Positions 1 to 17,826 of a DNA stretch of 64,000 nucleotides are shown in pieces; the first letter of the stretch is position 1, and every line of letters starts with the position of its first letter. The stretch is from a virus: positions 26,317 through 90,316 of the IMG/VR virus record IMGVR_UViG_3300025131_000014; one strand, 5' to 3'. A model generated the notes under the pieces. That model did not search any database and was not told where the DNA came from. It worked only from the letters and a program-made list of their open reading frames with translations. Both the position numbers and the translations under genes were made by a program.

Positions 1-3000
1 AAACTTTTCCATACTATTTACATAGAAATCATAGAATTCTTTTAGCTCTGGAACTTTCATTACTTCTTCAAACTCTTTGTTCCAATGTTTGGCTGCAGGT
101 ACTGATGGAACATAGCGACTAGCAAAATTGTATTTAAGGACAGCCCCACTTGGAATTTTTCCTCCTGATGTAAGGCTATTAAAAAGTTCATTATAGATAA
201 AAGGACTGTTTTGAACATCCCATTTATCTCTAGCTGCTTCATATGCTCTTAGATCAAAATTACCGTCTTTATCTACAGATATTACTTTTAAATCTTCTAT
301 TATTTCTGTTCTATTTTCAACAAACTTATTGAAAAGAGTTTTTTGTTCTGTTAATAGAGCATCTATCATTTCAGTAGCTACTTCTCTTCTTTCTTCATTT
401 CCATCTACAAGCTTTTCTATAAGCTGTTCTCTATATTCTTTTCTTTGCTGAGCTGTAGTTGGTGCTTGTTCAATTCCTAAGTCTGTTTTTCGTGGATCAT
501 ATATTTCTTTACCATCTATAAGCATACCAATATCGATAGCTACAATATTTTCTTTTTGCCATAGCATATGCTTTTTATAAGCAGCATTAGAAGGTCCTAC
601 TCCTTTTACACTATTGATATGATTTCTTTTTTCCCATAATTTTTGAAAATAAGAACGGTTGATTCTACTAAGTAAATTTCCTGTAAGTTCTCCATTTTCA
701 TCTTTTTGGGCAAGCTTGTCAAATTTTTCTTTTATATTGCCTGGTCCTATATTAAGTTTTTCAATTGCTACGTTTATATCTTTAACATGACCTTCAAATT
801 CATTACTAGCTTTTATAATAGCCTGTTGTAACCATTTATCTACAATTCTTACTATTGGAACTTGAGAAGAGAAAGCACCTCTTGTTTGAGCTGCAAATGC
901 TCCTGTATCAAACTGAGGTCCAAATATATCTTTCATGGCTAAGTCTAATCCTGCAGATGAATTAACCATTTTTCCTATTATTTCTCTAGCACCATGTGTC
1001 CATCTTGTTTCTAAATCTTGAAGTTGACTAGCAATATCTCCAAAGTTATATCCATGAAATTGTGTTTCTCTGGTTACTCTGTTCATAACCCCTTTCCAGG
1101 ATTTAATTATTTTAATTACTGAGTCAAGTTCAGAAAGATTTCCTCCTTTATGCAAAACTTTATCTGCCCAGTCTAGCTGTTCTTTTGCTATTTTAAGTGT
1201 TTCAACTGAAGTTTGTTCTCGTAAAAGATCATCTCTTTGTTCTTTTATTTTAGCTATTCTTGCTTCTAAAGGAGCAACTGGATCTTCTCCTTTGTTTTCT
1301 AAAGAACTTGCTCTAGTAATACTTCTTTCAAGATTTTTTATTTGATTGTTAAGCGAATTAATAATGATCTGTGTAGCTGAGTCAAGTTCTCTTTTCTTTT
1401 TTCTTTGTTTTTGCGGCATCGCATCAGTACTGTAATCGCCTTCAGGTCTTTCATCAGTTACTACTATAATGTAACCTCTGTTTGAATCTGGAAATACTTT
1501 AGCAGTTACACCAGGATTTTCAGCTTCGATCTGTTCAGCTCGGCTATTTGCTGTTGTAATAAGAGTAAATAGTTTCTTTCCTCCGTGTCTATTAAGTAAG
1601 CCATAGCCTTTTTCTATATTATATAAAGAAAGATTTCTTATAGGAACTTCTTTTGCTTTAGGTTTTTGAGCATAGAATACTTCACCTTTTTTAGTAGCTA
1701 TTCCTATTTTTCCTGTTACTACAATAGGAGTTGCAAGTTTATTAACAGTTCCTTCTTTTATAGCTTTCTTTATAAGTTCATTAGAATACTTAGGACCTAC
1801 TCCTTCAATTGTTGATACAGTAATATGAGGATGTTTAACTTTAGATTGTGGATTTTCTATAATAAGTGCCTGACCTTTTTCATCTTCTACAGTTGCTATT
1901 ACAGTTAAAGGTATTTCTTGTGTATAAGGTAATGAGTTTATAAGATCTTGATCGGGCATAAATTGAATTGTAGAATGATGCATATGAACATTCTTATGTT
2001 TTGCTGGAAAAGTTTCTAAGAGAGTCTTATGTACTTTTTTAGAAATAAAGACAGCAGCATAAAGAGCATCTTTTTTAAGTTCTCCTAATGATATAGGTGC
2101 TTCTTTTTTAGGCATATCATCCTTTCCCCAAGCTGCATCTAAGAAATCATCTCCCATCATATTTCCATCGATACCTGCATCTGAAATAGGATCATCTGCT
2201 TTGAGTTCTTTAAAAGGTAATATACCTTGATCTAAATTTTTATATGTAACGTTTTTATTTAGTTCTTTAGTTGCCCATTGCTCTAAAGTTATAGGGTTTT
2301 TTATAGTCTCTCCTGCTTCTCTTTCTCTGTCTAGATATTCTGCCAATACTGCATCCATATAGTCAAAAGCATCACTTACTGCTCCTACTTCAGGCCATTC
2401 CAGTATATCTACTATCTGTTTATTAACAGGTGTTTTATTTGCACGTCCTAGTGAGCTAAAAGTTCTCATATATGTATACATACCCTCACCGTAAAACTCA
2501 TCAATATGTGTTAGCAGAGCCTCCCATTCTGTTGGCCATTTTTCTTTAGGTTCTTTATATATAGGTAATGCACTTATAATATTACCTACATTCAATTGGA
2601 ATTTGTTTTTGTTTTCTGCTGCTATTAGTACATACTCTGTTTTTAGAGTAATTTTTTCGCCATACTTGTCTGTTACTTCTATTTCTTTAGGAAGTCTTTC
2701 TTCTATTCTTTGTCCTTCTGCATTTGTATAAGTTTTGTTAAGTAATGTATCTTTTGGAGTAGGATCATAAACAGAATCCCATTCTTCTGCTCTTTTAGTC
2801 ATATCCAAATATTTATTCAATCTGGATATTGGTTTTTCTATATCTTCTGAGGATTTATATTTTGGAGCCAATTCTGTATAATGAATCCAACTCCCACTTG
2901 GTATATAAGCATTTTGGAAATATTCGCCAGGAATAAATTTACCATCATATTCAGTACCTTTTGTTTTAAGATATTCTTCCAATTTCTTGTTGTCTGAATC

Positions 3001-6000
3001 AAATTCTTCTTTAAACTTCTTGGCTATTAAGGCATCAATTATAATTCTCCCAACACTAAGGTCTGGTTGTCCTCCAAACTCTTCAACTATCATTTGAGAT
3101 GCGCCAGGTGCTGCACGACCAACTCCTTCATCCCATGTCCCTCTATGTTCTATTATTTCCCCTTGTGCCTCATTATTAAATTTAGCAGCTATAAGAGATT
3201 CAATAGACATATCTTTATATTCTTTTAATTTCCCTTTTACATAATCTCCTATAACACGTTCATATTGTACTAAATCTTTATCTTTTTCATATTTATATTC
3301 CTTAATGGTATATTTACCTTTTTTAATCTTAATCTCTTTTTTAGATACTATTTCATCCCATGCTTCGAATTTTAACTGTTTGATTATTTCTTCATCTGTT
3401 ATCTCAATTATTTTACCTTTATCTGCAACTCTTTTACTAGTGCCTGATTTGCTTCTTGTAGCATAATCCAATGCTGTGTCTAAATAAGGAGTCAAAGAAA
3501 CCCCTGTTGTTTTGCCTCCAAAATTATCTTGTGCAAAAATTGTTAAGTCTCCGTTCTTATCTATTTTATATTGAGATTCAAGAGATACGCCCCTATATAC
3601 CTTTTTCTGTTTCTGAGCAATTTCTTTAGGATTCTGATTATATCTTACTTGTTTTTCTTCTTCAGTAATCGCAGGCACTTCTTCAATATCCCCTTTTTTT
3701 ATGTTTTCTGTTTTTTTGACTTTAACACCTTTAACCCCACTACTTTGTTGTGTTGGTTGAGTGGATTCTAATTCTTGTTGAGCTAATATTAAACCTTCCA
3801 AGAATGCTTGGTCTATTAATTGATTTGTGTTATGAGTAAAGCTCTCATACTGCATTAACTTTTTAGCAGCTTCTGAATTAGAGTTTTGTTTAAAAGACTC
3901 AACTACAAGTTGTTTCATTAAACCTAAACTATCTGTTTTTTTCATTTGTGCAACAGTACCTTTACCTCTTATTTTTTTCCCATATCCTCCAATCCCAACA
4001 TATTTGTTATAAGTAGCTTGATCAAAAGTACCAGACTTATTAGATTGATAAGCATGTTCTACACTGCCGTATTCTCTACCTTTCCAAGTAAACTCTCTTG
4101 GAGCTAGATTAGATAAAATTTTGGTAGAATATTCAGACTCAGCTTGTCCCCAGTATACATTAATAGTTCCTTTCTTTTCAACCTCACTAGTTTGTTGTGC
4201 TGGTCCAATATTTAATTTACCAGTATTAAACCATTCTTTACTAAATATAATATTAGAAGGAATAGGTCCAGCAGCATTAAACATATCAATCATTTCTAAT
4301 CCTGTGTAGCCATTTAAAGATGCTTTAGTAGTATTTCTGTACGCTACTTTAAATTGTTTATTAGGATTAGCTCTGGCAGTCTCATATAAAGATTTAATAG
4401 ATTCTGTAATTTGTTGAGGAGAAATAGATTTAAGACCTTTATTTTCTTTTACTCTTAAATCTTTCGTAGGTAAAGCATAAGCATTTCCTTGTAATCCTTC
4501 TCCTTGTCCATACTTAGCACCAAATTTATCTTTAGCTTTTTTAGCTGCCCCTGCACCATGCCTACCTTCTGGATTACTTCCAAATACAAATATTGTATTT
4601 TCTTCAGGAGTTATATCGCCCTCATAATATTGAGCGACCTCTTCTTTTACCTCTATATCACTGTCTTCTGGTACTATTGTAGGGTCATTAAATCCATATT
4701 CTTTATTAAGTCTATCAGCTATAGCTCTTTGGAACTCAATCATTCTTTCTTTAAACTCTTTTTCTCCTCCTTGATATCCAGTGTCTCTTAAAATGTTATT
4801 ATATGCCTCAAGTTCTTCTAGAGTAAGTGGAATAGCGTCATAAAACTTTCCTGTTCTTCCTGTACCTCCCACAGCTCCAACACCTCCGTCTCTTTCAGCT
4901 TGGCCATATCGCTCAATTCTTGCTTTTCCGTGTAGTCCTGATCGTAAATTTATTTTTAATTGGTAAGTATTATCCCAAATATTCTTTATAGTCTTTTCAG
5001 GATACGTACCTAAGTAAAGATCAGGAGTTACAACACGATCAACAAATTCACTATCTTCTACAATATCGGCTGCATCCTTATAAAATTCTTTTTGGGCTCC
5101 TACTAAGTTAAGTGTTTGATTAAGAGCAGCTTCATAAAGACTTTTATCTTCAAATGTTTCAGCTAAAGGATTATCCTTTTTTAAGGATCCAACTAAGTCA
5201 GCAAGTAAGCTTAATAGTTTTTCCCATATATTTTTACCTTCTTCATATCCTTTAGGTATTTTATGGGATAACATAAATGTTCTTAATCCTTTAGAGGCTG
5301 AAATTCCTGCTGTAAATTCATTTACTGGATGATTAATAGAAACAAGAGGGTATATATATGTTGATTCTGCCCATGTTAATGTTTGATTATTAATAGATTT
5401 TTCTTTAACTCTTATAAAGTCTGCTTCAGTAACTCCGTCTTTACCAAATAGCTGGGCCAATGTAACAACTTCTTCTGTTGTATCCTCACCTTGTAAAACT
5501 CGTGTATCTGGTGATGCTGCTATTAGAGCGTCTTTAGTATGTGTAGCTAATTTAATAAGTTGATTAACAATTTTCTTTGTTTCTGGTGAGGCAATGCCTT
5601 TCCTGACTTGATTTATAGCTGCTAAAGTTAAGAAGTGTGTTAATTCATGTATAATAATAGTTTCTTCTAAATATCTTTGATTTTCAGGAGCAAGTTCACT
5701 TGTCCATCCTGTATCTTCTCTTTTAAAACTAACCTCTGCTAGTGTGTATTCTCCTTGGTCATTAAAGCTGCTTCGAAACACTCCGCTTGATATTGGACCT
5801 TTTGTTCCATTAATCTTAATAGTTACTTTAATATTTTGAGGAAGTGTTTCTATAACTTCTTTATAAGCAGTGGCCATTTTTTTATGATAGTCACTATTAG
5901 AGTTAAATCTAATATCCTCTAACATTTCAATAATTTGTTCTTTTTGATTTTTTATACCTTTGGTTACTTCTGTAATTGAGGGGTCTTCTGACGGGTCTTT

Positions 6001-9000
6001 GCCTAAATTATCTCCTACTAACTTTAATCCACTATTGAAAGTATTGGGTGGAGGTATAGTGTTTTCTCCAGAAAGTTCTACTATTTCTTCTGGAAGATTT
6101 TCTGTATTAAGACTTATTGCTATAGGATCGTTAGGATTGTACTCACTTTCTTGTCTGGTTCCTAATGTGCTTATTCTTCTATATACAGTATATCCTAGAG
6201 TACCTTCTTCTTTTTCTTCTCCCATTTTTTCATAAAGTTCCCATCTGTTGGTCTCGTTATTTCTAAAAGAAAGAAAGTGAGCATAAAACTTTCCTGGGCC
6301 TAAATTACCTAATCCTTCAATTGTTGTTATAAATTTTTCATTTTCTGTAGGAATTTCTCCATCAATACTTTGTCCTGCAGTAGTACCTTTAAGTTTTATA
6401 TACTCTTTTCCTTTTATTTGATTTTTTTTATCAAATGAACTGATTTTTGTAGTTCGGTAAGGTTTATGCTGAAAGTACTGTCTGGTAAAATTAGTAGGAT
6501 TTTTATAATAGAAAGGATTTGTTAATGGTTGTCCTAATATAAAAGTATCAAGAAGTGCAACATTAGAAGCTACACTTCTTATTGCTTCAGGATAACCAAG
6601 GTCCATCATTACAGGATATGGAATTAGTCTAAAGAAGTTTCTTGGACTTTGTGTGCCTCCTGTTGCATATGTATATTTTATAAGGTCATAGGCTAGCTTT
6701 TTTAAAGAAACGGTAGCTTCAGCACCATCTGTATAAGGGACTTTTTGATCAGTTTGAGACCATGCAAAGAATTCTCTTACCAGATCAGGCTCCTCTATTT
6801 TTTCATTTCCACTTGCCATATATTCAAGACGGGAGGGTGTATTTCCGATATCTTCTGATAAACGAGGGTAAAGTCTTTTTAATAGTTTACTTCTTTTCCC
6901 CCATTCTGTTTGTTGAAGAGCTTTTACTCTTCTGGCTAATGAATTTCTGGCTAAAACTATTGTCGTTTTGCCTTCTTCTTCTTTTCTTTCTTTTACTTCA
7001 TCATATAAAAGTCTTTTTCTAAGGTCTTCAAGAGATTCATCAGGAAAGAGCTGGTCAAATACTAGGGAATTTAGGTATTGTTTTAGATCTGTAAATATTT
7101 CTGCTTTTCTATCAATATTCATAGAAGCTATTCCTCCTAATTCTCCTATACTATTAGTAGCTTGCATGAAAACAGGAGATTCATAGGGATATAATTCTTT
7201 AAATAATTGAGTAGCAAGTACTTCTCCATACATTGCAGATGCTCCTATTAGTCCATTAGGATTGAAAATAAACACATCACCATTTGGCTGTTGATTTAGT
7301 TCTCCTATTATCTGTTCAGTTCCTTTTAGATAGGTTATCCCTTCTCCATCCATAACATCAACTAGTTTTTGTTTTAGCTCTAATGCATTTAACATTGTTT
7401 TTCCTGGATGTCTTAAAGGTTGGTTAGTATTAGTTACATTTTGGGCGGCTGAAATATCTTCTCCCATTGTTTGGATTACATTTAATGCTTCTAGTATCTT
7501 TAATTGGTCGTTCCAATAGTTATCTCCTTTATTTTCAGGAGCTGTACCAATCATTTCTTTCATTTCTTTTAAACTAAAAGTATCATCAAGATAGTCTTGA
7601 GGATAAAGTTTATCTGTGTCTTCTGTTATTTGACCATTTTTTTTGATCATTTCTTTTACTTCATTAAATGCTTCTTCACTAGCTTTTACCCTGCCCATTA
7701 TTATATCTTCTGTAACTTTACTTATTTTAGTAGTGTAAGCTTTTACCCACATATGAACTGCCTCTTGATTTGCAAAAGTTCCCACATATCTTTCATCAAA
7801 GCCTTGAGAAATCATGGCTAAAGCTATTCCAAATGTAGAACCGCTCATATTTAGCTTATGAAGATCCTGATCATTACCATTATCCATACTGGCAGACTGG
7901 AATCCTGATGATACATCATTTTTTGTACCTTTTCTAGATACTAGTTTGACATCGGATACTTTATTTCCTTCATATATTTCTTTACCATCATCAGATTTAA
8001 ACTTTATTTGAAGTGGTACTAAAAGTTTTCTTTTGGAATTTTCAGGATCTGTTATTACTTGCTTAAATTGTGTATCTACTGTTTGAGCTAATGCAAGATA
8101 AGTATTGAATAAAGAGAAAACACCCATTCCAGTTTGTCCGTCTTTGTTAATAAAGAAGAAGTCTCTTTGAGCTTTTGGTGTAATAAAGTTAGGTAAAGCT
8201 TCATTTTTATTTTTGAGGGCTTCAAGTTCTAATCCTATTTCTCCTATTCTTATTTTTCCTTCATCTAATGGGGTTAATCCTTTTATTACTGCTTCAGGAG
8301 TTGACATTACTTCATTATAGATCTCTATTACCTGATTTTGAAGGCCTTTCATAGATTCTCGTAGTTCTGCTTCTAACTCATCAATATTTTTAATTGCCTC
8401 ATCTATTGTTTTTCCTTCTTCTTCAGCTTTCTTTCTCTTTTCTTCTTTCTTAATTAAGAGATCTTCAGCATGTTCTTTTGAAGCATATTTAACGATTCTA
8501 CCGTCTTTAGTGACCCATGTCCAGTATTTATAGGTCCTTAGTTTATCTACATCAAAGTCAGATCCCATTTGAGTTACTATCTCATCAGGTACTATTGCAA
8601 GATCTCCCATATATTCAGGTAAGAATCCCACTATTTCGAAGCCTGCCATACTACTATGACCTTGAAAAGGTATTCTAAATCCAAATAGATCAAGAACATC
8701 ACCACTAACTTTATCGCTATCAAATACTACTTTACCGTTTTCATCTTTTTTAGTATAGTCACTTATTCTTAATATTTTTCCATTCCCATCTTTAACGGTC
8801 CATGGTACTAATATTTGTGCTTTTTGGACTTTATTGTCTTTAGTTAGCATATAATTTAGTCCATCTTCTGGATTATATCCTGGAGTCCATACAATATCAG
8901 ATTTATGAGAATTAGAAAGTTCATTAAACCCTCTAACTCCTTTAAAACCTACATTTGATCCTTGTATATAAGCATTTCCAGGTAAAGTAGATTTAAGTAT

Positions 9001-12000
9001 TTTATTCTTTATAAGAGAAAGAACTAAAGGTTCCATTCTAAAAGATGACATATGAAATCCTAATGGTAATTCAAATTGTGTATAACCATCAGTTAATCCT
9101 AATGCCATAAGATCATTAAGAGGATACCCTCTATCCATTGCCTCTTCTACTAGTATTTTCCTAAGTTTTCGTAAATCTGTTATTTGAATTGTTTCTACTT
9201 CTTTCCATACATCAGGTTCAACTTCTATTTCCTTTTTTACCTTTACAGCTTTTACTGATGTTAGAAATTCATTATATTTTTTCTCTAAGATTTTTATTTG
9301 GACTTCGCCAAATTTAGTTCGTAAGTAATCAAAGTCAGTACCATTTTTAGATTTTCCAAAAAGGTTTTCAAATAGCATTTTTTGTCCTTGAGTAGCCTCT
9401 CTTATAACTTCTTTAGCTCCCTTATATGGATTTTCTTGTTGTATTTTATAACCAGATCGATCTAGACTTAGAACATTTTTAAATTTTAAATCAGAGAGCA
9501 TATTGCCTTCTTTATCAAATATTGTTTCTACACCTTGGGCTCCTGTTTTTACACCACTTACATATATTAATGCATCACCACCAGCATCTTCTAACCCTAA
9601 TAAAACATTTTCTATTTCTAACCCTTCAACTACTTGAGGAACTAAAGGAAAAGCAGATGTTTTTAAGTACATAGTAATAGCTGCTCTTGTAGTTTGTTCC
9701 ATTTTAAAACCTGTGTATACAGGTTTAAGAGGTTGTAAAATAACATCTTTCATCTCCATATCAGTGTACTTGGATTTTTCAAGTTCACCTCTTGCTTGGG
9801 TTTCTGCTGTTTTGTCTCCTGCTTTTTTAGCGGCTATAATTTTTTTAAGAGCCGCTAATTGCTTTTCATACTTGTCAGTAAGTACTTGAAAGTCTGTATC
9901 AGATATTTTACCATAAGCCATCAAATCTGTCAGATATTCTCCCATTGTTGTTAGCATCTGAGCATCTGTTGATTCAAATCCAGTATTAGCTCCATAAGCT
10001 TTTCCAAGTTTTTTTGACATTGCTGTCATTTGAGCAAGATTTTTACTTGCTACGTCTCTATCATTTGCTATTACTATATTAAAATGATTAGCTCTTCTGT
10101 GGTGTACTGAACTATTAATAATAGCTGGATTATGCCAATATCCTTTTGTTCCGCTTGCTCTTACTTCACTTAATCTTTTATTAAGATTGGCAAATGTATT
10201 GATAAGAGTATCTTGGAATGTTCCTTTCTTAGCTTTCTTATAATAAAAAGCAGGATCACCACTCATTACTTGGAACATTTCTTTATGAGCAAACATATAA
10301 TTAACTACATAATCAGCTGCTGCTGCTTTTATCTTACGTCTATTAATTGTATCAACAGTAAATCCTGGAGTATTTGTGTTTCCTCCAAGTGTTTCTCTGT
10401 TATTAAGGCTATTCATATATTTCTCACTAAAACCTGTCATCTCCCATATATATGTGATTTGTCCATTTTTTTCTTTAGAAGTTCTTTTGAACATACCCAT
10501 TGTTTGCCAGTCTTTTACTTGTTCATTTATTGCAGCAATAATATTTCTTGCTATAACACTTTTTATACTAGCTTTTTGTTCTTCTCCTAAAGGGATTATT
10601 ATATTTCCTTCGCCATCCCAAATAGAAGTGGTTATATCACTTTGATTTTCTTCTAATTGTTCTTTATTAAGAAAAGGAAACATTATAAATTTATCTCCTC
10701 CATCTTTATAACTGTTAACTTTATTTCTTTCTTTTTCAGAAAGTGTTTGGAAAGACTTTATTCTTAGCATTTCTGCTTCATATATGTCATAAAGTGCATC
10801 TAAAGCTTCTTCTTCAAGTCCTGCAATTTCTTCTACGTCTTTAACTTCATTCCAGGCTATTTTAACTTGTTTTCTTAATGCATGGATTATAGGAATAACA
10901 GTATGTTCTGATGGGGTCATATATAGATACTTGGCTCTTGTTTGATTTCCATGATTTTGAAATAAACCTATTTTGTATATCTCCATTTCTTTTGGAGTCA
11001 TCTGTTCGAGGGCCGCAGCAGTACCTCTTCTTATACCGTGAGATATCCCATCTGCTATTTCTACTCTGAATGTATTTCTTAAAGACTGTCCATTTATATA
11101 TCTACCTTGTCTTTTATTGTATATATCTGTAATTATCTGTTTTTCTTGTTCATTAAGCCCTGGTGGAAGCATATCAGGAGTTATTTTTTCTCCTAATGTT
11201 AACCTATTAAAAGCTCCTAGCCATTCTGAATTCCATTGAAAAGCCATTTTAGATAAAGTATTAACATATTGTGCAGCTCTTTCAATTTCTTGAGGTTGAG
11301 ATTCTTTTTCTTTAGGCTCATAAGAATCTGCTAAAAGAAGAACTTTTGCTTGTTCTGTAAATTTAGACAGATCAGAATATTTATATAGAAGCTGATTAGT
11401 AACATCTCGTGTTCCTGTACCCATACTGACACCTCCTATTTTAACATCTGCTTTTGCTAATGCACGGATCCTTGCAATCTGTCCTTCTGTAAGATCTCTA
11501 AATGGATTTTTAGACTCAAAACTTATAACAGGTTCTACATTTTTTTTAGCAATCCAATGACTTACTAATTTTACTTTATCTCCTTTTACTTCTTTAACAG
11601 TATATTCTTGTCCTTTATAAAGAACAAGACTTCCTCTTATAACAGTTGGTTTAACAAGTAAAGTTTCAAATAAGTGTTTTATAAATCTTCCTTGTCCTCC
11701 TGAATGTAATAGTGCTGTAGGGCTATCAATGGTTCCACCTATTTGGTTTAATCGCCCTAAAGTAGTTTTAGGACTCATCACTAATTTTAAAGCTGTTTTT
11801 GCACTAAGTTCTATACCAAGTAATTGTAAAATTTCTTGTGTTTTAGCAGCTACTTCAATTTGAGCTTTTTGGGCATCATATTCTTCTCCTTTCTTTTGTC
11901 GTAAACTTTGAAGAGCCTCATTAGACAGTCTTACATATTCATCATAAATAGCTTTAGCTTTATCTTTTGATATGTATGCTTTTCCTCCTATTAGATCTAT

Positions 12001-15000
12001 TAGACCATTTTCTTCCATATTAGAAAGAAGGTTTTGTTGCCATTTCTCTACTAAAAGATTTACATCGTTTTGTGTGTCTCCACTAAAAGTTAAGATCTTT
12101 GATCCCTTATTTGATCCATCTACATTTCTATTAGGAGTAAATTGTGCTACTACCCTAGTTACTTCTGCTTTTGAAGGGAAAGCTATTACAAATTGAGATT
12201 TTAGTTGATTGGGATTTTTAACATTTTTATCTTTATCTAGATGCATTAAATAATTAACAAGTGCTCCTATTTGAGCATTACCTGTATCTAATGCATATTC
12301 TTTTAGTACTCTTACTATACTATTGAAATCTTCAGGAGTTCCTACTAATATGTTTAATAGGTTATTATAAAGATCTTCATAATTTACAAAAGTATCTAGT
12401 CCTAGATAATTCTTTTCTTTTATATACTTAACCTTACCATTTACTTTTTCTACACCTGTAATTTTAGAGAGTCTTGATAAGATAAGCCTAATTTGCCAAG
12501 GAGCGGTCTTTTTGGAATCTGTACGAAGTTTTGCTTTTGAACTGTAGTTTTCTGTAATTCCGTCCTCTATATAGGTTTCATCTTTTTCCTCTTGGACCCC
12601 TTCTTCTAAATCATAGAGATACTCAACAACTCCACTGTCTTGTATTTTTATTCCAATTCTTCCAAGCTTTTCATTTACTACCTTTTGTATTGCATCAAAA
12701 TTATTAATCAAAGCTCTAAACTTTTTAGCTCTTTCTTGATTTGCTTCTATATCTGTTGCACCTGCAACATTTTTAATGAGTTTACTTTGAAATCGGTTTA
12801 TAATATTTCTTATTCTTATTTCTTTTCGTTTTTTAGTTTCACCAGGTCTTTCTTTTGCTGCTTCTAGTTCTTGTTTCATCCCTTCAAGGCTGAAGGTTTT
12901 TCCATTTTTAAGGCCTTTAACTATTTTTTTATAAAGTCCTTCATCTTCTTTAAGTCTTTGTAAAGCATAATCATATAACTGACTTGCTTTAATGTTTTTG
13001 TTACTATTAGCTAAAGTGTCGTAATGATTTAGTACATAAGCATATACACTATCTGATCCTGCAATAAGTTCATCACCTGTAAGGTCTTTATTTTTTATTC
13101 CTGGTAATAGTTTTTCTATAAGTTCATCTAGTTTTTTTGTAGGTTCTTGCTTTGCAGGCATTTCGTCTACATTTTCTAGACTATCTCCCCAAATATCAAG
13201 TGGAGTAATATCATCATTACCTTCTATTCCATCAAGTATACCTCCATCGCCACTTTCTTGACCATAGTCATCTTCATCTTCTTCTTCTTCTTCTTCTTTT
13301 GTTTTTTCTAGATCTTCCATGAAGTCTGGTTGTGGCCCAAATAGTTCATTAAGAATATCCTCTTCTACTCCGAGTTCGTCACTTCTTTCTTGATTAGTTT
13401 CTTGTTCTACTACTCCTATTTGTTGATATTCTACAGTTGGTTGATCAAAATAGATCCATTCTTTTGTTCCATCAGATAAGGTTACTTCTTCTCCACGGAA
13501 TTTAGATAAAAGGTTCTTTTTTACAAAGGTTTCATATCCTGTGGTTTCATTATTATTACTTGCTTTTCCTTCTATTGAATCTATAACATACTCTCCATTC
13601 TCTTTTTGAGTTAATATAGGAACGGTAATATTTTTATCTTCTCCTAATTTCTTATAGTTAACAGCAAATTGACTGTTATTTAAAGCTTCTACTAGCTTAT
13701 CTTTCTTTTCATGAAAGTGTTCAAGGCTTAAAAAATTCATTGGTTTTGCCCATACATCTTTAATAGTAAACCTAACAGTTAATAAATTTCCTTCATTATC
13801 TGTTCTTATATGAAATTGTCCATAGCCTGTTTTAGCTCTTTCTCCTCTTTCTGCATTTCCATCTTCTGTTGTAAATGCGTGATCAACTACATATAACTGA
13901 ACAAACTCTTTTAAAGCATCAGGACTATTAAGAATATCAATTTGTGTCATTGCTTTTATGCCTTTGACTATTTTTTCATTTTCTTCTCCAATATTTTCAG
14001 CTCCCATATGTCCTGCCAACATGAAAATTTCTATTGCTTTGGCAATAGTATTAGCATAAGCTGTTCCATCTACTGCAACTTTTCCTTTAGTTATAAGATT
14101 TTGTATTTCATTAAGTTGTGGAGCCCGTACATAAGCTGCAAAGCTTTGCTTGTCTTGTGGTGTGGGAAGAACAATATATACTGCTCCGTTAGCTAAATCT
14201 TTTCCATTTTTTACATATTCTAAAGAATTCTGTTCAAAGGGAGATTCTCCTCTCATTAATATTCCATTAACTGATACACCTAGTTTAGCACTTGGTCCTA
14301 CTACATCTCCTAATTGGGTTTCTTTATATCTACCTGTATGCTCATCTTTTTTATTAAAGATCAGATGTCCTATTCCTTTCTTACGTATTTCAATTTCAAC
14401 TCCTTCCTTTTTTTCAAAGGCATCGAAAGCAGCATTTCTAAAGTCTTGTAATCTTTTAGTTTGTATGGCCCAATTATCTATATCTAGTTTACGTCCAGTC
14501 CAATTAACTACTCTTCTAAATACAAAGTTTGCTAAGGGCACTCCATTGGAGTCAACTTCTACTTTTAGTTTTCCGTCTTTGAGTGTATATGCAGTACCTG
14601 CATCATGGATATACGCAACAGGTTCTCCATTCTTGTTTTTTATAACAAGAGGAGTTCTCATTCTTATTTCTTCTTCTGTAGGATTTTCTTTTGCTTTCCA
14701 CTCACCAAAGGTCATTTCTTCTCTTTGGCCTTTATCATTTATTATAGTACTGGTAATTGGGACTGAATCTGCTGCGGGATCTACTTCTACTGTAAAAGTA
14801 TCTCCTACTTGAAATCTTGTATGTGATTCAATATCATTATGAAGCGTACTACTCTTCTGATCTCCTGTAGATACTGTTCTAATCGTTCTAACATCCCCAT
14901 TATCGTCTACTACTTCTTTAAACTCTCTAGCAAGATAAGCCATAGAAAGAGAACTTACTTTTAAGGTTCCTGTTTGTTCTTGTCCTGTTTCTGCTTTTGT

Positions 15001-17826
15001 TAATTGATTTATCTCTTCACTTTCATTAAGGTTATTTGTTTCATGATTATCTATATCTTCTTTTGTCAGATTACCATCTCCAGTACTTCCTTTCTCAGCA
15101 TCTTTATAGTCTGTTTTTTCTTTAGGTGTAAATTTAGGGGTAACATTTGGATTATCTTTAGGATCTGGAGTATTGTCAGCGGCTGCTTTATTAGTTTTTT
15201 GGACTTTATTAGCTGTATCTTTAGCTGTTTGAGCTCCTTCTTTTTTTGCTGATTCAAGTTTTTCTTTTCTTTGTTTTTCCAGGTATTTTTCCATGGCACC
15301 AGGAACAGTCATTTCATCATATTCTTTTTGAAGTACTTCTATTCCTAATTTCTGTGCTTTAACTAAAGCTTTACCATGTACTATCCCTGTATATTCTTCC
15401 CCTGTAAGTTGAGCAAATTCTTTAAAGCCTTTCATTGCATCAAGAAGTTGTTTACTTTCTCCTTTTTCCCATCCTTCAGTTTTAGACTGGAAAATCTTAT
15501 AGAGTTTATGAACAGCTCCAAGAGATTCAGGATCTAACTCTTTTAATAGAGCATCAGCTTCAACTGGATCTTTTTCAGCTTCTAGTATTTTTGCGGCATA
15601 ATTTTTAAATACATCCATTATTACACCAGCATGCTTTTCAGCATTTTCAGTACCTTTATCTATCTTATCTTGGATGTGTTTAAGAGTTTTAGCTCCTGAT
15701 TCATTTATACGAAGTCCATGTTTTATTCTAACATCTTTTCTAGCTTTTCCTCCATCTTTACGATATGTAGAACCATCTTCAGATCTAGTTTCTTCATGAG
15801 CTGTTAAATCTTTTCGTAACTCAACAAGAGCTTCTTCATTAGAATCCCATTCTGTAAAAACATCCATTAATTCAGAAGAAGTTCCTTCATATCCAGCATT
15901 ATCTAGTCTTTCGCGAAGTTCATGCTCAAACTTAGTTATCTGTTCTTCTATGTCTACTATACTATCTTTAGAACTTCGTATTTGTACTTTTTTCCCAAAA
16001 ACTAAATGAGCATAGCTCATTGTTTCTTGATCTCCCATCCAGTATCTATCTATTGCCTGGTCATAGTCTCCTTGAAGAGTCTTTAAGTCATTTATTTTTT
16101 GTCTGGCTACCTTTTTATAATAAAGCGGGGAATCTTTATTTGTTTCCATTCCTTCTCTTCCTGCATCTGTTTCTCCATCTTCTCCTACATTTGTATCATC
16201 TATACCTTCTATAGCTTCTAGCATAGTAAGATAAACATCAGGAGTTCCATTTTGAAATGCTGAAAAGACTGCTATATTAGAAAGTGCTTGCTGTGCTTTG
16301 GTTATTTTATCCTGATTTCCTTCTGCTACGCCTTCTTCAAGATTAGTATATACTGTACTCAGCTCTTCTCCTTTCTCAATAAGTTGTCCCAATTCTTTTT
16401 GATATGCTTCAGCGATCAGTTCATTTTTAGACTTTAAAGGTTCTAGTCCTTGTTTAGCTCTTTTTATATTCTTATATGTGTGTGCTACATTATCTATTCC
16501 TCCTAAAACCATTGTATTACCCACTCCCCCTAAAAAGCCTAAAGTCATAGCTAAGGTTCCTTCGGGAGATGTAAATGCTTCTGCTATTCTATCTCCAAAT
16601 CCAGTATCTTTTTCCCATGCTTGTAAAGTTCCTAAGTTTTTTCTTCCTGTAAATTCTCCTTCTTTTTGAGATATTTCATTTACTAACTCCTCAGCTGACT
16701 CAAATCCTCCTTCTTTTACAAGTCTTCCCATTTGTTTCCAACCTCCTTGCTTTAGAACTTTAGGTTCAAGTTTTAATCTTTTATACCAGTCTGTAAATGT
16801 TTCTTTGGTTCCGTTATCTAATGTTTTTAAATTAAACTGTTTAAACATCCCACCTTTCATTGCTTTAGTGGATTTAAAAAGTGCTCCTACTGCTGTATAG
16901 TTCAAAGCAGTATTAAACATGTTCATTCTTACTGTAGTAGCAGCAGCATTAGACGCTTCTTTTTGAGCTGTTTCTTTGTCTTTGCCAATTTGAATTCCTT
17001 CCTTATATACAGTGTCATATACATTTACACCTACCATTATTCCTTCTGTATAGGCTAAACTAGCTGCTGTCATTAATTGGGCACCTTGATCGAGTCTTCT
17101 TCCCACAAGACCTGCATTTGCTGCAGCTTTAACTCCAAGTTTTCCTTTAGATACAGCACTAGCTAGATGTTTTGCTCCTGCTTTTAAGCCTGTGCCTACC
17201 CCAAAACCTGTTATACCAAACTCTACAATACTTTCTACAAGTCCTCCAAAGTTATTTATCCACCATGCAGAGTCTGAAGGATCCCACACTTGACTTGGGG
17301 AAGTTCTATATATTGGATCCCAAGCTTTCATTCCTTCGCTTCCTTTTCTCATTGACTCTGATAACCAGTTATCGTAATCTGTGTCGATAATATTCATCAT
17401 TCCTAGGTAGTTCTGATAATCTCCTATATAACCTACTGTTTCAAGAAGCCCCATAGCTATATTAGGGAGTAATTGATAAGTAAACTTTCCTAGTTGTGCT
17501 CCACCGCTTTGCCTTTCTGCCCTTAATCTATTAACTGCTGCTACATCTGGATTTCTAAGGTCTGTTCTAATTGTAGTCATGTAATCTTCATAACTTTCAA
17601 AGTTATCAAGACCTACCATCTTTAAAGTTGTGAGATCATGTCCTTCTGCAGGAGCAGGCAGACCTTTTCTTTTATCATCTCCTATTTGTTTTACTTCACT
17701 AAGAATTGAAGATAGGTTAGACTTTCTTGGACTTTCTGGGGGATTAACTGTTTTTACATTTCCCTGCTTTGGAGTTTCACTTGATAGTCCTGTTTGGACA
17801 TCAATTATTTCTGCGAGTTTAGCCAT
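1..17826 (-). CDS. Giant virion RNA polymerase polyprotein, partial (runs off window edge, at least 5942 aa)
   Basis: ATG at 17824-17826, 9 nt after the stop of the upstream gene. Hand translation at many points (1-60, 1.4-2.2k, 3.3-4.6k, 5.3-5.7k, 8.5k, 11.5k, 13.1k) stays in one frame. The ORF track shows no long minus-strand ORF here, as expected if the frame has no stop in the window. Contains RIPFQGHSSM...IVTQMGSDFDVDKL, the crAss-type two-barrel RNAP active site. Confidence 0.93.
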   Translation of the reverse strand, partial: MAKLAEIIDVQTGLSSETPKQGNVKTVNPPESPRKSNLSSILSEVKQIGDDKRKGLPAPAEGHDLTTLKMVGLDNFESYEDYMTTIRTDLRNPDVAAVNRLRAERQSGGAQLGKFTYQLLPNIAMGLLETVGYIGDYQNYLGMMNIIDTDYDNWLSESMRKGSEGMKAWDPIYRTSPSQVWDPSDSAWWINNFGGLVESIVEFGITGFGVGTGLKAGAKHLASAVSKGKLGVKAAANAGLVGRRLDQGAQLMTAASLAYTEGIMVGVNVYDTVYKEGIQIGKDKETAQKEASNAAATTVRMNMFNTALNYTAVGALFKSTKAMKGGMFKQFNLKTLDNGTKETFTDWYKRLKLEPKVLKQGGWKQMGRLVKEGGFESAEELVNEISQKEGEFTGRKNLGTLQAWEKDTGFGDRIAEAFTSPEGTLAMTLGFLGGVGNTMVLGGIDNVAHTYKNIKRAKQGLEPLKSKNELIAEAYQKELGQLIEKGEELSTVYTNLEEGVAEGNQDKITKAQQALSNIAVFSAFQNGTPDVYLTMLEAIEGIDDTNVGEDGETDAGREGMETNKDSPLYYKKVARQKINDLKTLQGDYDQAIDRYWMGDQETMSYAHLVFGKKVQIRSSKDSIVDIEEQITKFEHELRERLDNAGYEGTSSELMDVFTEWDSNEEALVELRKDLTAHEETRSEDGSTYRKDGGKARKDVRIKHGLRINESGAKTLKHIQDKIDKGTENAEKHAGVIMDVFKNYAAKILEAEKDPVEADALLKELDPESLGAVHKLYKIFQSKTEGWEKGESKQLLDAMKGFKEFAQLTGEEYTGIVHGKALVKAQKLGIEVLQKEYDEMTVPGAMEKYLEKQRKEKLESAKKEGAQTAKDTANKVQKTNKAAADNTPDPKDNPNVTPKFTPKEKTDYKDAEKGSTGDGNLTKEDIDNHETNNLNESEEINQLTKAETGQEQTGTLKVSSLSMAYLAREFKEVVDDNGDVRTIRTVSTGDQKSSTLHNDIESHTRFQVGDTFTVEVDPAADSVPITSTIINDKGQREEMTFGEWKAKENPTEEEIRMRTPLVIKNKNGEPVAYIHDAGTAYTLKDGKLKVEVDSNGVPLANFVFRRVVNWTGRKLDIDNWAIQTKRLQDFRNAAFDAFEKKEGVEIEIRKKGIGHLIFNKKDEHTGRYKETQLGDVVGPSAKLGVSVNGILMRGESPFEQNSLEYVKNGKDLANGAVYIVLPTPQDKQSFAAYVRAPQLNEIQNLITKGKVAVDGTAYANTIAKAIEIFMLAGHMGAENIGEENEKIVKGIKAMTQIDILNSPDALKEFVQLYVVDHAFTTEDGNAERGERAKTGYGQFHIRTDNEGNLLTVRFTIKDVWAKPMNFLSLEHFHEKKDKLVEALNNSQFAVNYKKLGEDKNITVPILTQKENGEYVIDSIEGKASNNNETTGYETFVKKNLLSKFRGEEVTLSDGTKEWIYFDQPTVEYQQIGVVEQETNQERSDELGVEEDILNELFGPQPDFMEDLEKTKEEEEEEDEDDYGQESGDGGILDGIEGNDDITPLDIWGDSLENVDEMPAKQEPTKKLDELIEKLLPGIKNKDLTGDELIAGSDSVYAYVLNHYDTLANSNKNIKASQLYDYALQRLKEDEGLYKKIVKGLKNGKTFSLEGMKQELEAAKERPGETKKRKEIRIRNIINRFQSKLIKNVAGATDIEANQERAKKFRALINNFDAIQKVVNEKLGRIGIKIQDSGVVEYLYDLEEGVQEEKDETYIEDGITENYSSKAKLRTDSKKTAPWQIRLILSRLSKITGVEKVNGKVKYIKEKNYLGLDTFVNYEDLYNNLLNILVGTPEDFNSIVRVLKEYALDTGNAQIGALVNYLMHLDKDKNVKNPNQLKSQFVIAFPSKAEVTRVVAQFTPNRNVDGSNKGSKILTFSGDTQNDVNLLVEKWQQNLLSNMEENGLIDLIGGKAYISKDKAKAIYDEYVRLSNEALQSLRQKKGEEYDAQKAQIEVAAKTQEILQLLGIELSAKTALKLVMSPKTTLGRLNQIGGTIDSPTALLHSGGQGRFIKHLFETLLVKPTVIRGSLVLYKGQEYTVKEVKGDKVKLVSHWIAKKNVEPVISFESKNPFRDLTEGQIARIRALAKADVKIGGVSMGTGTRDVTNQLLYKYSDLSKFTEQAKVLLLADSYEPKEKESQPQEIERAAQYVNTLSKMAFQWNSEWLGAFNRLTLGEKITPDMLPPGLNEQEKQIITDIYNKRQGRYINGQSLRNTFRVEIADGISHGIRRGTAAALEQMTPKEMEIYKIGLFQNHGNQTRAKYLYMTPSEHTVIPIIHALRKQVKIAWNEVKDVEEIAGLEEEALDALYDIYEAEMLRIKSFQTLSEKERNKVNSYKDGGDKFIMFPFLNKEQLEENQSDITTSIWDGEGNIIIPLGEEQKASIKSVIARNIIAAINEQVKDWQTMGMFKRTSKEKNGQITYIWEMTGFSEKYMNSLNNRETLGGNTNTPGFTVDTINRRKIKAAAADYVVNYMFAHKEMFQVMSGDPAFYYKKAKKGTFQDTLINTFANLNKRLSEVRASGTKGYWHNPAIINSSVHHRRANHFNIVIANDRDVASKNLAQMTAMSKKLGKAYGANTGFESTDAQMLTTMGEYLTDLMAYGKISDTDFQVLTDKYEKQLAALKKIIAAKKAGDKTAETQARGELEKSKYTDMEMKDVILQPLKPVYTGFKMEQTTRAAITMYLKTSAFPLVPQVVEGLEIENVLLGLEDAGGDALIYVSGVKTGAQGVETIFDKEGNMLSDLKFKNVLSLDRSGYKIQQENPYKGAKEVIREATQGQKMLFENLFGKSKNGTDFDYLRTKFGEVQIKILEKKYNEFLTSVKAVKVKKEIEVEPDVWKEVETIQITDLRKLRKILVEEAMDRGYPLNDLMALGLTDGYTQFELPLGFHMSSFRMEPLVLSLIKNKILKSTLPGNAYIQGSNVGFKGVRGFNELSNSHKSDIVWTPGYNPEDGLNYMLTKDNKVQKAQILVPWTVKDGNGKILRISDYTKKDENGKVVFDSDKVSGDVLDLFGFRIPFQGHSSMAGFEIVGFLPEYMGDLAIVPDEIVTQMGSDFDVDKLRTYKYWTWVTKDGRIVKYASKEHAEDLLIKKEEKRKKAEEEGKTIDEAIKNIDELEAELRESMKGLQNQVIEIYNEVMSTPEAVIKGLTPLDEGKIRIGEIGLELEALKNKNEALPNFITPKAQRDFFFINKDGQTGMGVFSLFNTYLALAQTVDTQFKQVITDPENSKRKLLVPLQIKFKSDDGKEIYEGNKVSDVKLVSRKGTKNDVSSGFQSASMDNGNDQDLHKLNMSGSTFGIALAMISQGFDERYVGTFANQEAVHMWVKAYTTKISKVTEDIIMGRVKASEEAFNEVKEMIKKNGQITEDTDKLYPQDYLDDTFSLKEMKEMIGTAPENKGDNYWNDQLKILEALNVIQTMGEDISAAQNVTNTNQPLRHPGKTMLNALELKQKLVDVMDGEGITYLKGTEQIIGELNQQPNGDVFIFNPNGLIGASAMYGEVLATQLFKELYPYESPVFMQATNSIGELGGIASMNIDRKAEIFTDLKQYLNSLVFDQLFPDESLEDLRKRLLYDEVKERKEEEGKTTIVLARNSLARRVKALQQTEWGKRSKLLKRLYPRLSEDIGNTPSRLEYMASGNEKIEEPDLVREFFAWSQTDQKVPYTDGAEATVSLKKLAYDLIKYTYATGGTQSPRNFFRLIPYPVMMDLGYPEAIRSVASNVALLDTFILGQPLTNPFYYKNPTNFTRQYFQHKPYRTTKISSFDKKNQIKGKEYIKLKGTTAGQSIDGEIPTENEKFITTIEGLGNLGPGKFYAHFLSFRNNETNRWELYEKMGEEKEEGTLGYTVYRRISTLGTRQESEYNPNDPIAISLNTENLPEEIVELSGENTIPPPNTFNSGLKLVGDNLGKDPSEDPSITEVTKGIKNQKEQIIEMLEDIRFNSNSDYHKKMATAYKEVIETLPQNIKVTIKINGTKGPISSGVFRSSFNDQGEYTLAEVSFKREDTGWTSELAPENQRYLEETIIIHELTHFLTLAAINQVRKGIASPETKKIVNQLIKLATHTKDALIAASPDTRVLQGEDTTEEVVTLAQLFGKDGVTEADFIRVKEKSINNQTLTWAESTYIYPLVSINHPVNEFTAGISASKGLRTFMLSHKIPKGYEEGKNIWEKLLSLLADLVGSLKKDNPLAETFEDKSLYEAALNQTLNLVGAQKEFYKDAADIVEDSEFVDRVVTPDLYLGTYPEKTIKNIWDNTYQLKINLRSGLHGKARIERYGQAERDGGVGAVGGTGRTGKFYDAIPLTLEELEAYNNILRDTGYQGGEKEFKERMIEFQRAIADRLNKEYGFNDPTIVPEDSDIEVKEEVAQYYEGDITPEENTIFVFGSNPEGRHGAGAAKKAKDKFGAKYGQGEGLQGNAYALPTKDLRVKENKGLKSISPQQITESIKSLYETARANPNKQFKVAYRNTTKASLNGYTGLEMIDMFNAAGPIPSNIIFSKEWFNTGKLNIGPAQQTSEVEKKGTINVYWGQAESEYSTKILSNLAPREFTWKGREYGSVEHAYQSNKSGTFDQATYNKYVGIGGYGKKIRGKGTVAQMKKTDSLGLMKQLVVESFKQNSNSEAAKKLMQYESFTHNTNQLIDQAFLEGLILAQQELESTQPTQQSSGVKGVKVKKTENIKKGDIEEVPAITEEEKQVRYNQNPKEIAQKQKKVYRGVSLESQYKIDKNGDLTIFAQDNFGGKTTGVSLTPYLDTALDYATRSKSGTSKRVADKGKIIEITDEEIIKQLKFEAWDEIVSKKEIKIKKGKYTIKEYKYEKDKDLVQYERVIGDYVKGKLKEYKDMSIESLIAAKFNNEAQGEIIEHRGTWDEGVGRAAPGASQMIVEEFGGQPDLSVGRIIIDALIAKKFKEEFDSDNKKLEEYLKTKGTEYDGKFIPGEYFQNAYIPSGSWIHYTELAPKYKSSEDIEKPISRLNKYLDMTKRAEEWDSVYDPTPKDTLLNKTYTNAEGQRIEERLPKEIEVTDKYGEKITLKTEYVLIAAENKNKFQLNVGNIISALPIYKEPKEKWPTEWEALLTHIDEFYGEGMYTYMRTFSSLGRANKTPVNKQIVDILEWPEVGAVSDAFDYMDAVLAEYLDREREAGETIKNPITLEQWATKELNKNVTYKNLDQGILPFKELKADDPISDAGIDGNMMGDDFLDAAWGKDDMPKKEAPISLGELKKDALYAAVFISKKVHKTLLETFPAKHKNVHMHHSTIQFMPDQDLINSLPYTQEIPLTVIATVEDEKGQALIIENPQSKVKHPHITVSTIEGVGPKYSNELIKKAIKEGTVNKLATPIVVTGKIGIATKKGEVFYAQKPKAKEVPIRNLSLYNIEKGYGLLNRHGGKKLFTLITTANSRAEQIEAENPGVTAKVFPDSNRGYIIVVTDERPEGDYSTDAMPQKQRKKKRELDSATQIIINSLNNQIKNLERSITRASSLENKGEDPVAPLEARIAKIKEQRDDLLREQTSVETLKIAKEQLDWADKVLHKGGNLSELDSVIKIIKSWKGVMNRVTRETQFHGYNFGDIASQLQDLETRWTHGAREIIGKMVNSSAGLDLAMKDIFGPQFDTGAFAAQTRGAFSSQVPIVRIVDKWLQQAIIKASNEFEGHVKDINVAIEKLNIGPGNIKEKFDKLAQKDENGELTGNLLSRINRSYFQKLWEKRNHINSVKGVGPSNAAYKKHMLWQKENIVAIDIGMLIDGKEIYDPRKTDLGIEQAPTTAQQRKEYREQLIEKLVDGNEERREVATEMIDALLTEQKTLFNKFVENRTEIIEDLKVISVDKDGNFDLRAYEAARDKWDVQNSPFIYNELFNSLTSGGKIPSGAVLKYNFASRYVPSVPAAKHWNKEFEEVMKVPELKEFYDFYVNSMEKF
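1680..2070 (-). other. 2H phosphoesterase (CPDase/CNPase-like) domain within the giant ORF
   Basis: Two HxT motifs: HHSTIQF (about 1960-1980) and PHITVSTIEGVGPKYSNELI (His at 1825-1827). Confidence 0.75.
3300..3610 (-). other. ADP-ribosyltransferase-like (R-S-E type) domain within the giant ORF
   Basis: Ordered motifs VYRG ... GVSLTPYLDTALDYA ... KIIEI ... FEAWDEIV. Confidence 0.5.
3780..4170 (-). other. NADAR (YbiA-like) domain within the giant ORF
   Basis: ILSNLAPREFTWKGREYGSVEHAYQSNK ... LMKQLVVESFKQN matches the NADAR signature (LSN...Y.svEH.yQ..K ... M......KF.QN). Confidence 0.8.
4230..4620 (-). other. Phage macrodomain-like (A1S_2505-family-like) domain within the giant ORF
   Basis: TIFVFGSNPEGRHGAGAAKKAKDKFGAKYGQGEGLQGNAYALPTK, the characteristic FVFGSN..G.HG.GAA motif. 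Confidence 0.78.
5150..5950 (-). other. Zincin metallopeptidase domain within the giant ORF
   Basis: IIIHELTHF (HExxH at 5635-5649), with downstream NEFTA supplying a candidate third-ligand Glu. Confidence 0.75.
6200..13100 (-). other. crAss-type virion RNA polymerase core (boundaries approximate)
   Basis: DFDVD at 8545-8559. Further motifs seen: TDAQ, LQPLKPVYTG, YLKTSAFPL, VKTGA, LPGNAYIQ, RIPFQG. Confidence 0.9.

Follow-up and report, generated by a model that had tools for sequence, protein, structure and literature searches.

A macrodomain-like and NADAR tandem in the predicted virion RNA polymerase polyprotein of a crAss-like phage: candidate erasers of DNA ADP-ribosylation

DarT toxins act on single-stranded DNA (ssDNA) and block phage replication and RNA synthesis (PMC11543638). 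Phage erasers of the ADP-ribose (ADPr) marks made by DarT have been published: AdfN in 2025 (PMC11825919) and AdfM in 2026 (PMC13309987). AdfN proteins carry a NADAR domain and act on the guanine marks of DarT1 but not on the marks of DarT2 (PMC11825919; PMC11125620), and AdfM, a macrodomain protein encoded as gp104 of phage PhiKZ, removes the thymine marks of DarT2 from DNA (PMC13309987). AdfA and AdfB are binders that block DarT. To our knowledge, all enzymatic anti-DarT factors known at present (AdfN and AdfM) are made after the onset of infection; because DarT blocks both transcription and replication, this poses a timing problem for a phage that depends on early transcripts of its own. 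Here we describe a 64,000 nucleotide (nt) stretch of viral DNA (positions 26,317 to 90,316 of IMG/VR record IMGVR_UViG_3300025131_000014, hereafter the window) in which a macrodomain-like domain and a NADAR domain stand in tandem within the giant open reading frame (ORF) of a predicted crAss-like virion RNA polymerase (RNAP).

Parts of this arrangement have precedents. Tandem NADAR and Macro viral proteins, as well as virion-packaged Macro and NADAR domains, were predicted computationally in 2022 (Iyer et al., PMC9503650). These proteins resemble the window in joining two ADPr-processing domains in one protein with predicted virion delivery early in infection, but the survey makes no mention of crAss-like phages and stresses myoviruses and soluble ADPr derivatives, whereas the pair described here lies within the RNAP polypeptide of a podovirus-like phage of the crAss type. 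An ADP-ribosyltransferase (ART) fused to an N4-like virion RNAP was noted in 2017 (PMC5512222). The polyvalent proteins (Iyer et al. 2017) are likewise giant, multi-domain, presumably injected and composed of shuffled modules, and the first domain of the pair occurs in typical members (with ART-PolyVal, Kinase-PolyVal or helicases). NADAR is not listed in the 2017 catalogue and no Macro domain is mentioned there in polyvalent proteins (PMC5512222); unlike the N4-type enzyme, the RNAP of the window is of the two-barrel crAss type. The carrier protein itself compares with gp66 of phage phi14:2, for which a DFDxD motif has been described; gp66 is a component of the virion, enters the host along with the DNA and carries out early-gene transcription on ssDNA templates (bioRxiv 10.1101/2020.03.07.982082).

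The features on which this comparison is based are as follows (window coordinates, with residue numbers of the giant ORF).

1-17826, minus strand: giant ORF, 5942 amino acids (aa) in the window, intact; predicted virion RNAP polyprotein of the crAss-like kind, bearing a payload at the C-terminal end
8545-8559, minus strand: DFDVD motif, aa 3090-3094; catalytic signature of crAss-like virion RNAPs
4207-4629, minus strand: domain 1, aa 4400-4540; A1S_2505/gp296 family, macrodomain fold; candidate ADP-ribosyl hydrolase of the DarG/TARG1/AdfM type
4573-4575, minus strand: Asn4418 (N19 of domain 1); aligned to N23 of AdfM and to N22 of Thermus aquaticus DarG
4462-4464, minus strand: Lys4455 (K56 of domain 1, 'LPTKD'); aligns with AdfM K78 and DarG K80; invariant in the family alignments
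4171-4206, minus strand: linker, aa 4541-4552; about 12 residues between domains 1 and 2
3757-4170, minus strand: domain 2, aa 4553-4690; predicted divergent phage-type NADAR
4057-4059, minus strand: Glu4590 (E42 of domain 2); aligns with E43 of the Phytophthora NADAR (PnNADAR) and AdfN E36
4036-4038, minus strand: Lys4597 (K49 of domain 2); aligns with PnNADAR K50 and AdfN K43
3832-3834, minus strand: His4665 (H117 of domain 2, 'FTHN'); opposite PnNADAR E125 and the T4 AdfN histidine

Domain 1, in which FVFGSNPEGRHGAGAA begins at aa 4413 (window 4543-4590), matches two families of no known function: NCBIfam A1S_2505_Nterm (NF049995; 107 bits against a cut-off of 45, E 5.9e-31) and phrog_2072 (E 1.8e-33). 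The family comprises more than 1000 clusters of stand-alone proteins of approximately 142 aa that are 65-80% identical to the window copy. Sphingomonas phage PAU gp296 is one of the stand-alone family members. No Pfam family matches the domain at E ≤ 10, PDB sequence and profile searches returned no macrodomain (the top match, to Cel5A, was spurious and His-tag-like), and an Atlas search gave unnamed phage clusters only. The AlphaFold model (37 sequences, pLDDT 86.6) nevertheless has the three-layer alpha/beta/alpha fold of a macrodomain. Its top Foldseek matches are the macrodomains of alphavirus nsP3 and TARG1 (probability 1.00, TM 0.55-0.61), and in VIA, an independent all-against-representatives fold search, macrodomains account for nearly all of the first approximately 40 rows, with more than 15 entries at Z 10.1-8.0. 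These include nsP3 (10.1), BT1257 (9.5), TARG1 (9.3), Mycobacterium tuberculosis DarG (9.2) and T. africanus DarTG (8.4), superposed with a root-mean-square deviation of approximately 3 A over 120-130 residues. The initial annotation had called this stretch macrodomain-like: the Pfam Macro profile did not recover it, but A1S_2505_Nterm and the fold matches to macrodomains did, and in its motifs, including the catalytic lysine, it is closest to the DarG/TARG1/AdfM branch.

This closeness is visible at the level of families. BLASTP gave a local match of only 24 residues between domain 1 and AdfM, and hhalign put the probability at 1.9% when the domain-1 family was set against AdfM as a single sequence; the single-sequence match being so weak, a family profile was needed, for which relatives of PhiKZ gp104 were collected and 29 members aligned. 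With this AdfM-family profile, the E values for DarG macrodomain structures range from 5e-51 to 8e-43 and that for TARG1 is 3e-17, and hhalign of the domain-1 family against the AdfM/DarG family gave a weak match over 116 columns (E 9.2e-4, probability 23%). The invariant N19, G22, G25, G27 and A29 of domain 1 are in register with N23, G26, G29, G31 and A33 of the AdfM family, and T55-K56 ('LPTKD') aligns with T77-K78 ('FPTKd'). The 'FPTK' lysine is residue 80 in the alignment with T. aquaticus DarG, so that K56 would correspond to DarG K80, a match made by alignment at the same 23% probability. In DarG, K80 is a catalytic residue (PMC11543638), and in AdfM the N23A mutation reduces activity (PMC13309987). 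Because the invariant positions of both families coincide, domain 1 is classified, from sequence and model comparisons, as a diverged member of the DarG/TARG1/AdfM group of macrodomains that retains the key residues (N4418 and K4455). Its fold is that of the AdfM, DarG and TARG1 macrodomains, with the Asn-x2-G-x2-G-x-G-x-A loop and the lysine of 'PTK' in matching register, and like AdfM it is a phage-carried, predicted catalytic macrodomain without the DarT-binding C-terminal domain of DarG. It differs from AdfM, a small protein expressed after infection, in being only remotely related in sequence, in belonging to a separate and very conserved family (A1S_2505/gp296, phrog_2072) and in being embedded in a virion RNAP polyprotein.

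Two other identities of domain 1 were considered and rejected. Its glycine-rich motif could suggest a Rossmannoid of the SLOG/LOG type, but the fold search gives macrodomains almost exclusively. It is also not the DarG antitoxin of a resident toxin-antitoxin (TA) pair: the domain precedes a NADAR rather than a DarT-binding C-terminal domain, it has no darT neighbour or PADLOC match, and no DarT-like gene adjoins the members of its family in Bacteroidales genome loci.

Domain 2 contains 'SVEHAYQ' at aa 4588 (window 4045-4065) and has been compared with known NADAR families by profile and by fold. As a single sequence it falls below the thresholds of Pfam NADAR (PF08719; 18.1 bits against a cut-off of 35.1, and 16.3 bits in a six-frame search of the genome) and Phage_30_3 (PF08010; 16.5 bits, cut-off 36), while phrog_1017 (E 1e-6) and TIGR02464 (E 3e-4) match it weakly. 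With E ≤ 1e-3 as the limit, a HMMER search of 1.84 billion representatives recovered 310 relatives, the majority of which form part of proteins 2000-7400 aa in length; Pfam NADAR matches 11 of the 23 aligned short family members at E ≤ 0.01 (best 9.8e-9). Searched against the PDB, the family profile finds Escherichia coli YbiA (E 0.0054) and PnNADAR (E 0.03). The AlphaFold model (pLDDT 94.6) has the NADAR alpha+beta fold; among the solved NADARs, three in number, VIA gives Z 11.1 for 8bau, 10.6 for 2b3w and 7.7 for 8bat (a DarT1-associated Geobacter NADAR), with the next match at 3.7, and 2b3w and 8bau are the only Foldseek matches that reach a probability of at least 0.99. PADLOC has no NADAR-antitoxin match for domain 2. 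Against T4 gp30.3 (AdfN), hhalign of the family gives a probability of 62% (E 7.3e-5, 115 columns); together with the sub-threshold Phage_30_3 match, this places domain 2 in relation to the AdfN family yet outside it.

The residues E42 and K49, seven residues apart, are invariant or nearly so across the domain-2 family. Their equivalents in PnNADAR, E43 and K50 (E88 and K95 of E. coli C7), contact ADP-ribose and are required for guanine de-ADP-ribosylation (PMC11543638), and the AdfN study introduced its mutations at E36 and K43 (PMC11825919). A third position is Glu in PnNADAR (E125, YbiA-type), Asp in DarT1-associated NADARs and His in phage NADARs (PMC11543638). Since its Glu/Lys/His set stands opposite AdfN E36, K43 and the AdfN histidine, domain 2 is assigned, on sequence and model, to the phage-type NADARs, as a relative of the gp30.3 family rather than a member; the NADAR identity given in the initial annotation is therefore upheld by fold and residues, and candidate catalytic residues are present in both domains (N4418 and K4455; E4590, K4597 and H4665). 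Domain 2 has the NADAR fold of AdfN, with Glu and Lys at the positions of E36 and K43 and His at the third position. It differs from AdfN in representing a distinct subfamily that occurs mostly in 2000-7400-aa proteins, many of them with DFDxD, and in being fused to a macrodomain.

The carrier of the two domains extends beyond the window. In the full virus record (90,316 base pairs, completeness estimate 97%), the giant ORF is 6647 aa in length, with 705 further codons and its end 2118 nt past window position 1. In tblastn searches, the 800 residues around DFDVD (aa 2600-3400) match 126 crAss-like phage records with virion structural protein or RNAP annotations; FpV4-like Flavobacterium phages, where the annotation is virion structural protein, give the best matches (28.5% identity, E 5e-42). 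The RNAP stretch is also matched by phrog_16227. Based on the DFDVD motif, the homology to 126 records and the phrog_16227 match, the giant ORF is predicted to be an orthologue of the crAss-like virion RNAP protein, which agrees with the original placement of both domains in a crAss-type RNAP ORF; they sit approximately 1300-1600 residues past the DFDVD centre. A crAss-type major head protein, portal and TerL are encoded in the same window. Like phi14:2 gp66, the protein has a DFDxD centre, its gene belongs to the late/structural arm and the sequence around the motif has homologues in other crAss-like phages; its presence in the virion and its translocation are considered probable from this orthology and from the late-arm position of the gene. 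It is considerably larger than gp66 (6647 aa versus 2180 aa), with approximately 3000 aa ahead of the motif region and a payload of approximately 2700 aa plus a membrane-like tail behind the core. The last approximately 700 aa (record positions 24199-26316, beyond the window) include IYFVAALAIALFLLGQI, a hydrophobic stretch resembling a helix, and have no family match; this tail may be a membrane-inserting part of the ejection machinery.

Both domains are real and are not chance motifs. The initial annotation had described an FVFGSN..G.HGAGAA domain followed within about 20 residues by a NADAR, and the linker is indeed only about 12 residues in length. Using local profiles on the collected proteins, we found domain 2 in 6 of 120 long domain-1 proteins and domain 1 in 2 of 150 domain-2 representatives. 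In five proteins (P0134, P0186, P0276, P0241 and P0301) the order is macro and then NADAR, with linkers of 11-35 aa, and the whole module is 56-79% identical to that of the window. The tandem is thus a recurring unit, though a minority arrangement. P0301 (3120 aa, module at residues 62-485) has an insertion of approximately 120 aa right behind the PTK lysine motif, with the NADAR still following. When the payload was compared by BLASTP with the giant ORFs of 12 IMG/VR contigs, similarity ended at the module edges (65-82% identity inside, nothing outside); the modules are discrete, highly conserved units shuffled among fast-evolving polyproteins. No record among 50,697 phage records searched by tblastn with a two-domain query had both domains, and none gave a domain-2 match at E ≤ 1e-5.

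DFDxD is present in 30 of the 77 domain-2 representatives of at least 1500 aa, and in 24 of these 30 the NADAR lies past the motif; the NADAR module is thus a frequent passenger of RNAP giant proteins. The flanks of the modules are unshared across the collected proteins: beyond the two modules, the HELTH, ART-like, 2H and tail regions (described below) have nothing in common with the collected proteins or the IMG/VR loci.

Domain 1 also occurs fused to other domains in 436 longer proteins. Its partners include ART-PolyVal (PF18760), the SLOG-type cpYpsA (PF12694), YAcAr (PF10686) and DprA (PF02481), as well as PIF1/UvrD helicases, Toprim, a capping enzyme and, in two cases, Pfam NADAR. Bacteroides phage DAC19 gp177 combines a macro-like domain with a C-terminal region bearing a SLOG-like 'GTARGADT' motif, which echoes the cpYpsA/YAcAr/DprA fusions. 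In the gut Crassvirales phage cr112_1 (Kehishuvirus, NC_055881.1), a macro-like module with 71% identity is located near the N-terminus of a 'putative RNA polymerase', at a position different from that in the window and with no NADAR behind it. The domain is rare in bacterial species genomes (13 loci), and in Bacteroidales the loci are in or beside genes of polyvalent or conjugative-element type (a Kinase-PolyVal fusion, SNF2-methylase, DUF4121, DNA methylase). This distribution fits an establishment gene of an invader, not a cellular housekeeping or antitoxin gene. One Bacteroidetes metagenome-assembled genome (MAG) with a stand-alone macro-like gene also has a DarT-family match in a 473-aa open frame elsewhere.

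Taken with the properties of the carrier, these domains suggest a pre-loaded eraser pair that covers both DarT classes and acts on incoming phage DNA, a reading to which we assign a probability of approximately 0.5. We favour it because both domains keep the residues needed and because the orthologue of the carrier enters the cell with the DNA. Activity, substrate and delivery of this region are predicted by analogy. The polyprotein would be packaged and ejected with the DNA as phi14:2 gp66 is, so that both enzymes would be present before phage gene expression. The macrodomain would strip ADP-ribose from thymine via Lys4455 and Asn4418, as DarG2 and AdfM do, and the NADAR would strip it from guanine, and possibly cytosine, via Glu4590, Lys4597 and His4665, as do DarG1 and AdfN. 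Tethering to the polymerase may keep early templates readable, since DarT-type toxins mark ssDNA, the same form of template that the RNAP uses. Of 401 genomes sampled from the phylum to which a Bacteroidales MAG belongs, 34 have DarT genes, which makes DarT pressure plausible. The counter-defence role proposed in the initial annotation is partly supported, by the domain types, the residues, the RNAP location and the occurrence of DarT.

Three further regions of the giant ORF, which the initial annotation had joined with the tandem in a wider cassette, bear on the alternatives.

5632-5649, minus strand: HELTH motif, aa 4060-4065; zincin candidate
3187-3654, minus strand: ART-like region, aa 4725-4880 (YRG...SLT...), directly behind the NADAR; a lead only
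1810-1986, minus strand: 2H-phosphoesterase-like pair of HxT/S motifs, aa 5281-5339; Pfam tRNA_lig_CPD

The 2H region matches Pfam tRNA_lig_CPD (the fungal tRNA-ligase CPD domain) marginally (23.5 bits against a cut-off of 23, E 4.5e-5), which is the only Pfam result over the whole ORF searched in three pieces; it has no PDB sequence match. For the ART-like region, the nearest named clusters in the Atlas language-model search are R-S-E ARTs (Scabin-like, Pertussis_S1, NarE and Tse2, at 0.88-0.91), and there is no Pfam, PHROG, NCBIfam, PADLOC or PDB sequence match. The zincin has no profile match in Pfam, PHROGs or NCBIfam. Of the wider cassette, therefore, the 2H domain stands marginally, the ART is a language-model lead and the zincin lacks profile support beyond the HELTH motif.

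A number of observations weigh against a role on incoming DNA. Domain 1 is only remotely related to DarG and AdfM (hhalign 23%), with no DarG match in PADLOC and no Pfam Macro (PF01661) match in a search of the whole phage genome, and it has its own invariant residues (H24, Y51 and D57), which may be a sign of another substrate. Most carriers have one domain without the other. The HELTH motif upstream of the module could be a sign of proteolytic processing. The frequent SLOG and ART fusions of domain 1 suit either the pairing of a writer with an eraser or an action on soluble ADPr, and phage Macro and NADAR domains have in fact been argued to target mostly soluble ADPr derivatives (Iyer et al. 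2022, PMC9503650). In that case the pair would degrade soluble immune signals or toxic metabolites derived from NAD+ or ADPr (cyclic ADPR isomers, ADPr-1''-phosphate) on entry, blunting TIR/Thoeris-type or NADase defences. We consider this unlikely for the window. Such a function has been proposed for phage Macro, NADAR and SLOG domains, with tandem NADAR and Macro noted (PMC9503650), and would account for the repeated SLOG-type fusions of domain 1 (PF12694, PF10686, PF02481 and the DAC19 gp177 C-terminus). A 2H-like domain also lies approximately 600 aa downstream. The 2H fold also handles cyclic phosphates. However, Pfam searches find no SLOG domain in the giant ORF, the conserved residues match those of enzymes that erase base-linked ADPr (a lysine of the DarG K80 type and the Glu/Lys/His set of AdfN), and every phage NADAR assayed to date acted on guanine-ADPr DNA.

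The 2H domain is also relevant to an action on RNA, in which the module would remove ADP-ribose from transcripts modified by CmdT-like ARTs or, jointly with the 2H domain, clear the ADPr by-products that RNA repair leaves, as in a pathway of the Tpt1/2H/Macro type. The RNAP tether places the module beside nascent RNA, a defence that ADP-ribosylates mRNA is known (PMC11618068), the 2H match is to a tRNA-ligase CPD family, and 2H and Macro domains, and perhaps NADAR as well, have been linked to RNA repair (Iyer et al., PMC9503650). Given that no RNA ligase, kinase or Tpt1 domain is detected in the giant ORF and that 2H is not co-inherited with the module, we regard this as improbable. We think it rather improbable, too, that the erasers are a built-in antidote to an ART injected by the phage itself, shielding its DNA, RNAP or polyprotein in the manner of ART-NADAR and ART-macro TA pairs. 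The ART-like stretch (YRG...SLT) lies within approximately 50 residues and its Atlas neighbours are R-S-E ARTs, including Scabin-like ones; domain 1 is often fused to ART-PolyVal (PF18760) elsewhere, and pairs of ART with YbiA (PMC11125620) and of DarT with NADAR (PMC11543638) are known. Set against this, PF18760 is absent from the phage genome, and the ART region, a lead only with no Pfam, PHROG or PDB sequence match, is found in none of the collected domain-1 or domain-2 proteins, so that the eraser module travels without it. Finally, one or both domains could be catalytically dead, serving as binding or structural parts of the ejected polyprotein; the NADAR lacks the C-terminal 'WG' motif present in some relatives, and the Pfam Macro model misses domain 1. 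This is very improbable in our estimate: hundreds of homologues keep the candidate catalytic residues with little or no variation, and module identity is 65-85% between giant proteins that are unrelated elsewhere, which together argue for strong purifying selection on a specific activity.

The novelty suggested in the initial annotation is accordingly narrower than first thought, as both the eraser idea and the tandem had largely been anticipated. In open-access papers and preprints, we found nothing that connects NADAR or macrodomains with crAss-like phages or with the RNAP of these phages, and no characterisation of the A1S_2505 family. What appears to be new is that a candidate eraser pair is fused to a crAss-type virion RNAP, that the domain-2 NADAR subtype recurs in DFDxD giant proteins, and that the very large, unnamed A1S_2505 family falls in the DarG-like macrodomain branch. 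If the eraser-pair reading is correct, pre-packaged and polymerase-attached erasers would solve the timing problem posed by DarT, and a very large unnamed protein family of phages and mobile elements would gain a function. An explanation would also be at hand for some of the so far unexplained bulk of the crAss-like RNAP giants, as the NADAR module recurs in many DFDxD proteins, and nucleic-acid ADP-ribosylation would be a major pressure on Bacteroidota phages. More tentatively, the A1S_2505/gp296 family could be a widespread class of DarG-like DNA de-ADP-ribosylases which, in crAss-like phages, is joined to a NADAR and tethered to the RNAP, clearing thymine and guanine ADP-ribose from the ssDNA template before expression; we hold this broader proposal to be possible but doubtful. 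Both domains escape routine annotation, domain 1 having no Pfam Macro match and domain 2 a sub-threshold Pfam NADAR match.

A second very large ORF is located on the minus strand of the window at 45166-52176 (2336 aa), immediately downstream of the gene for the portal (window 52173-54566), whose end it overlaps by 4 nt.

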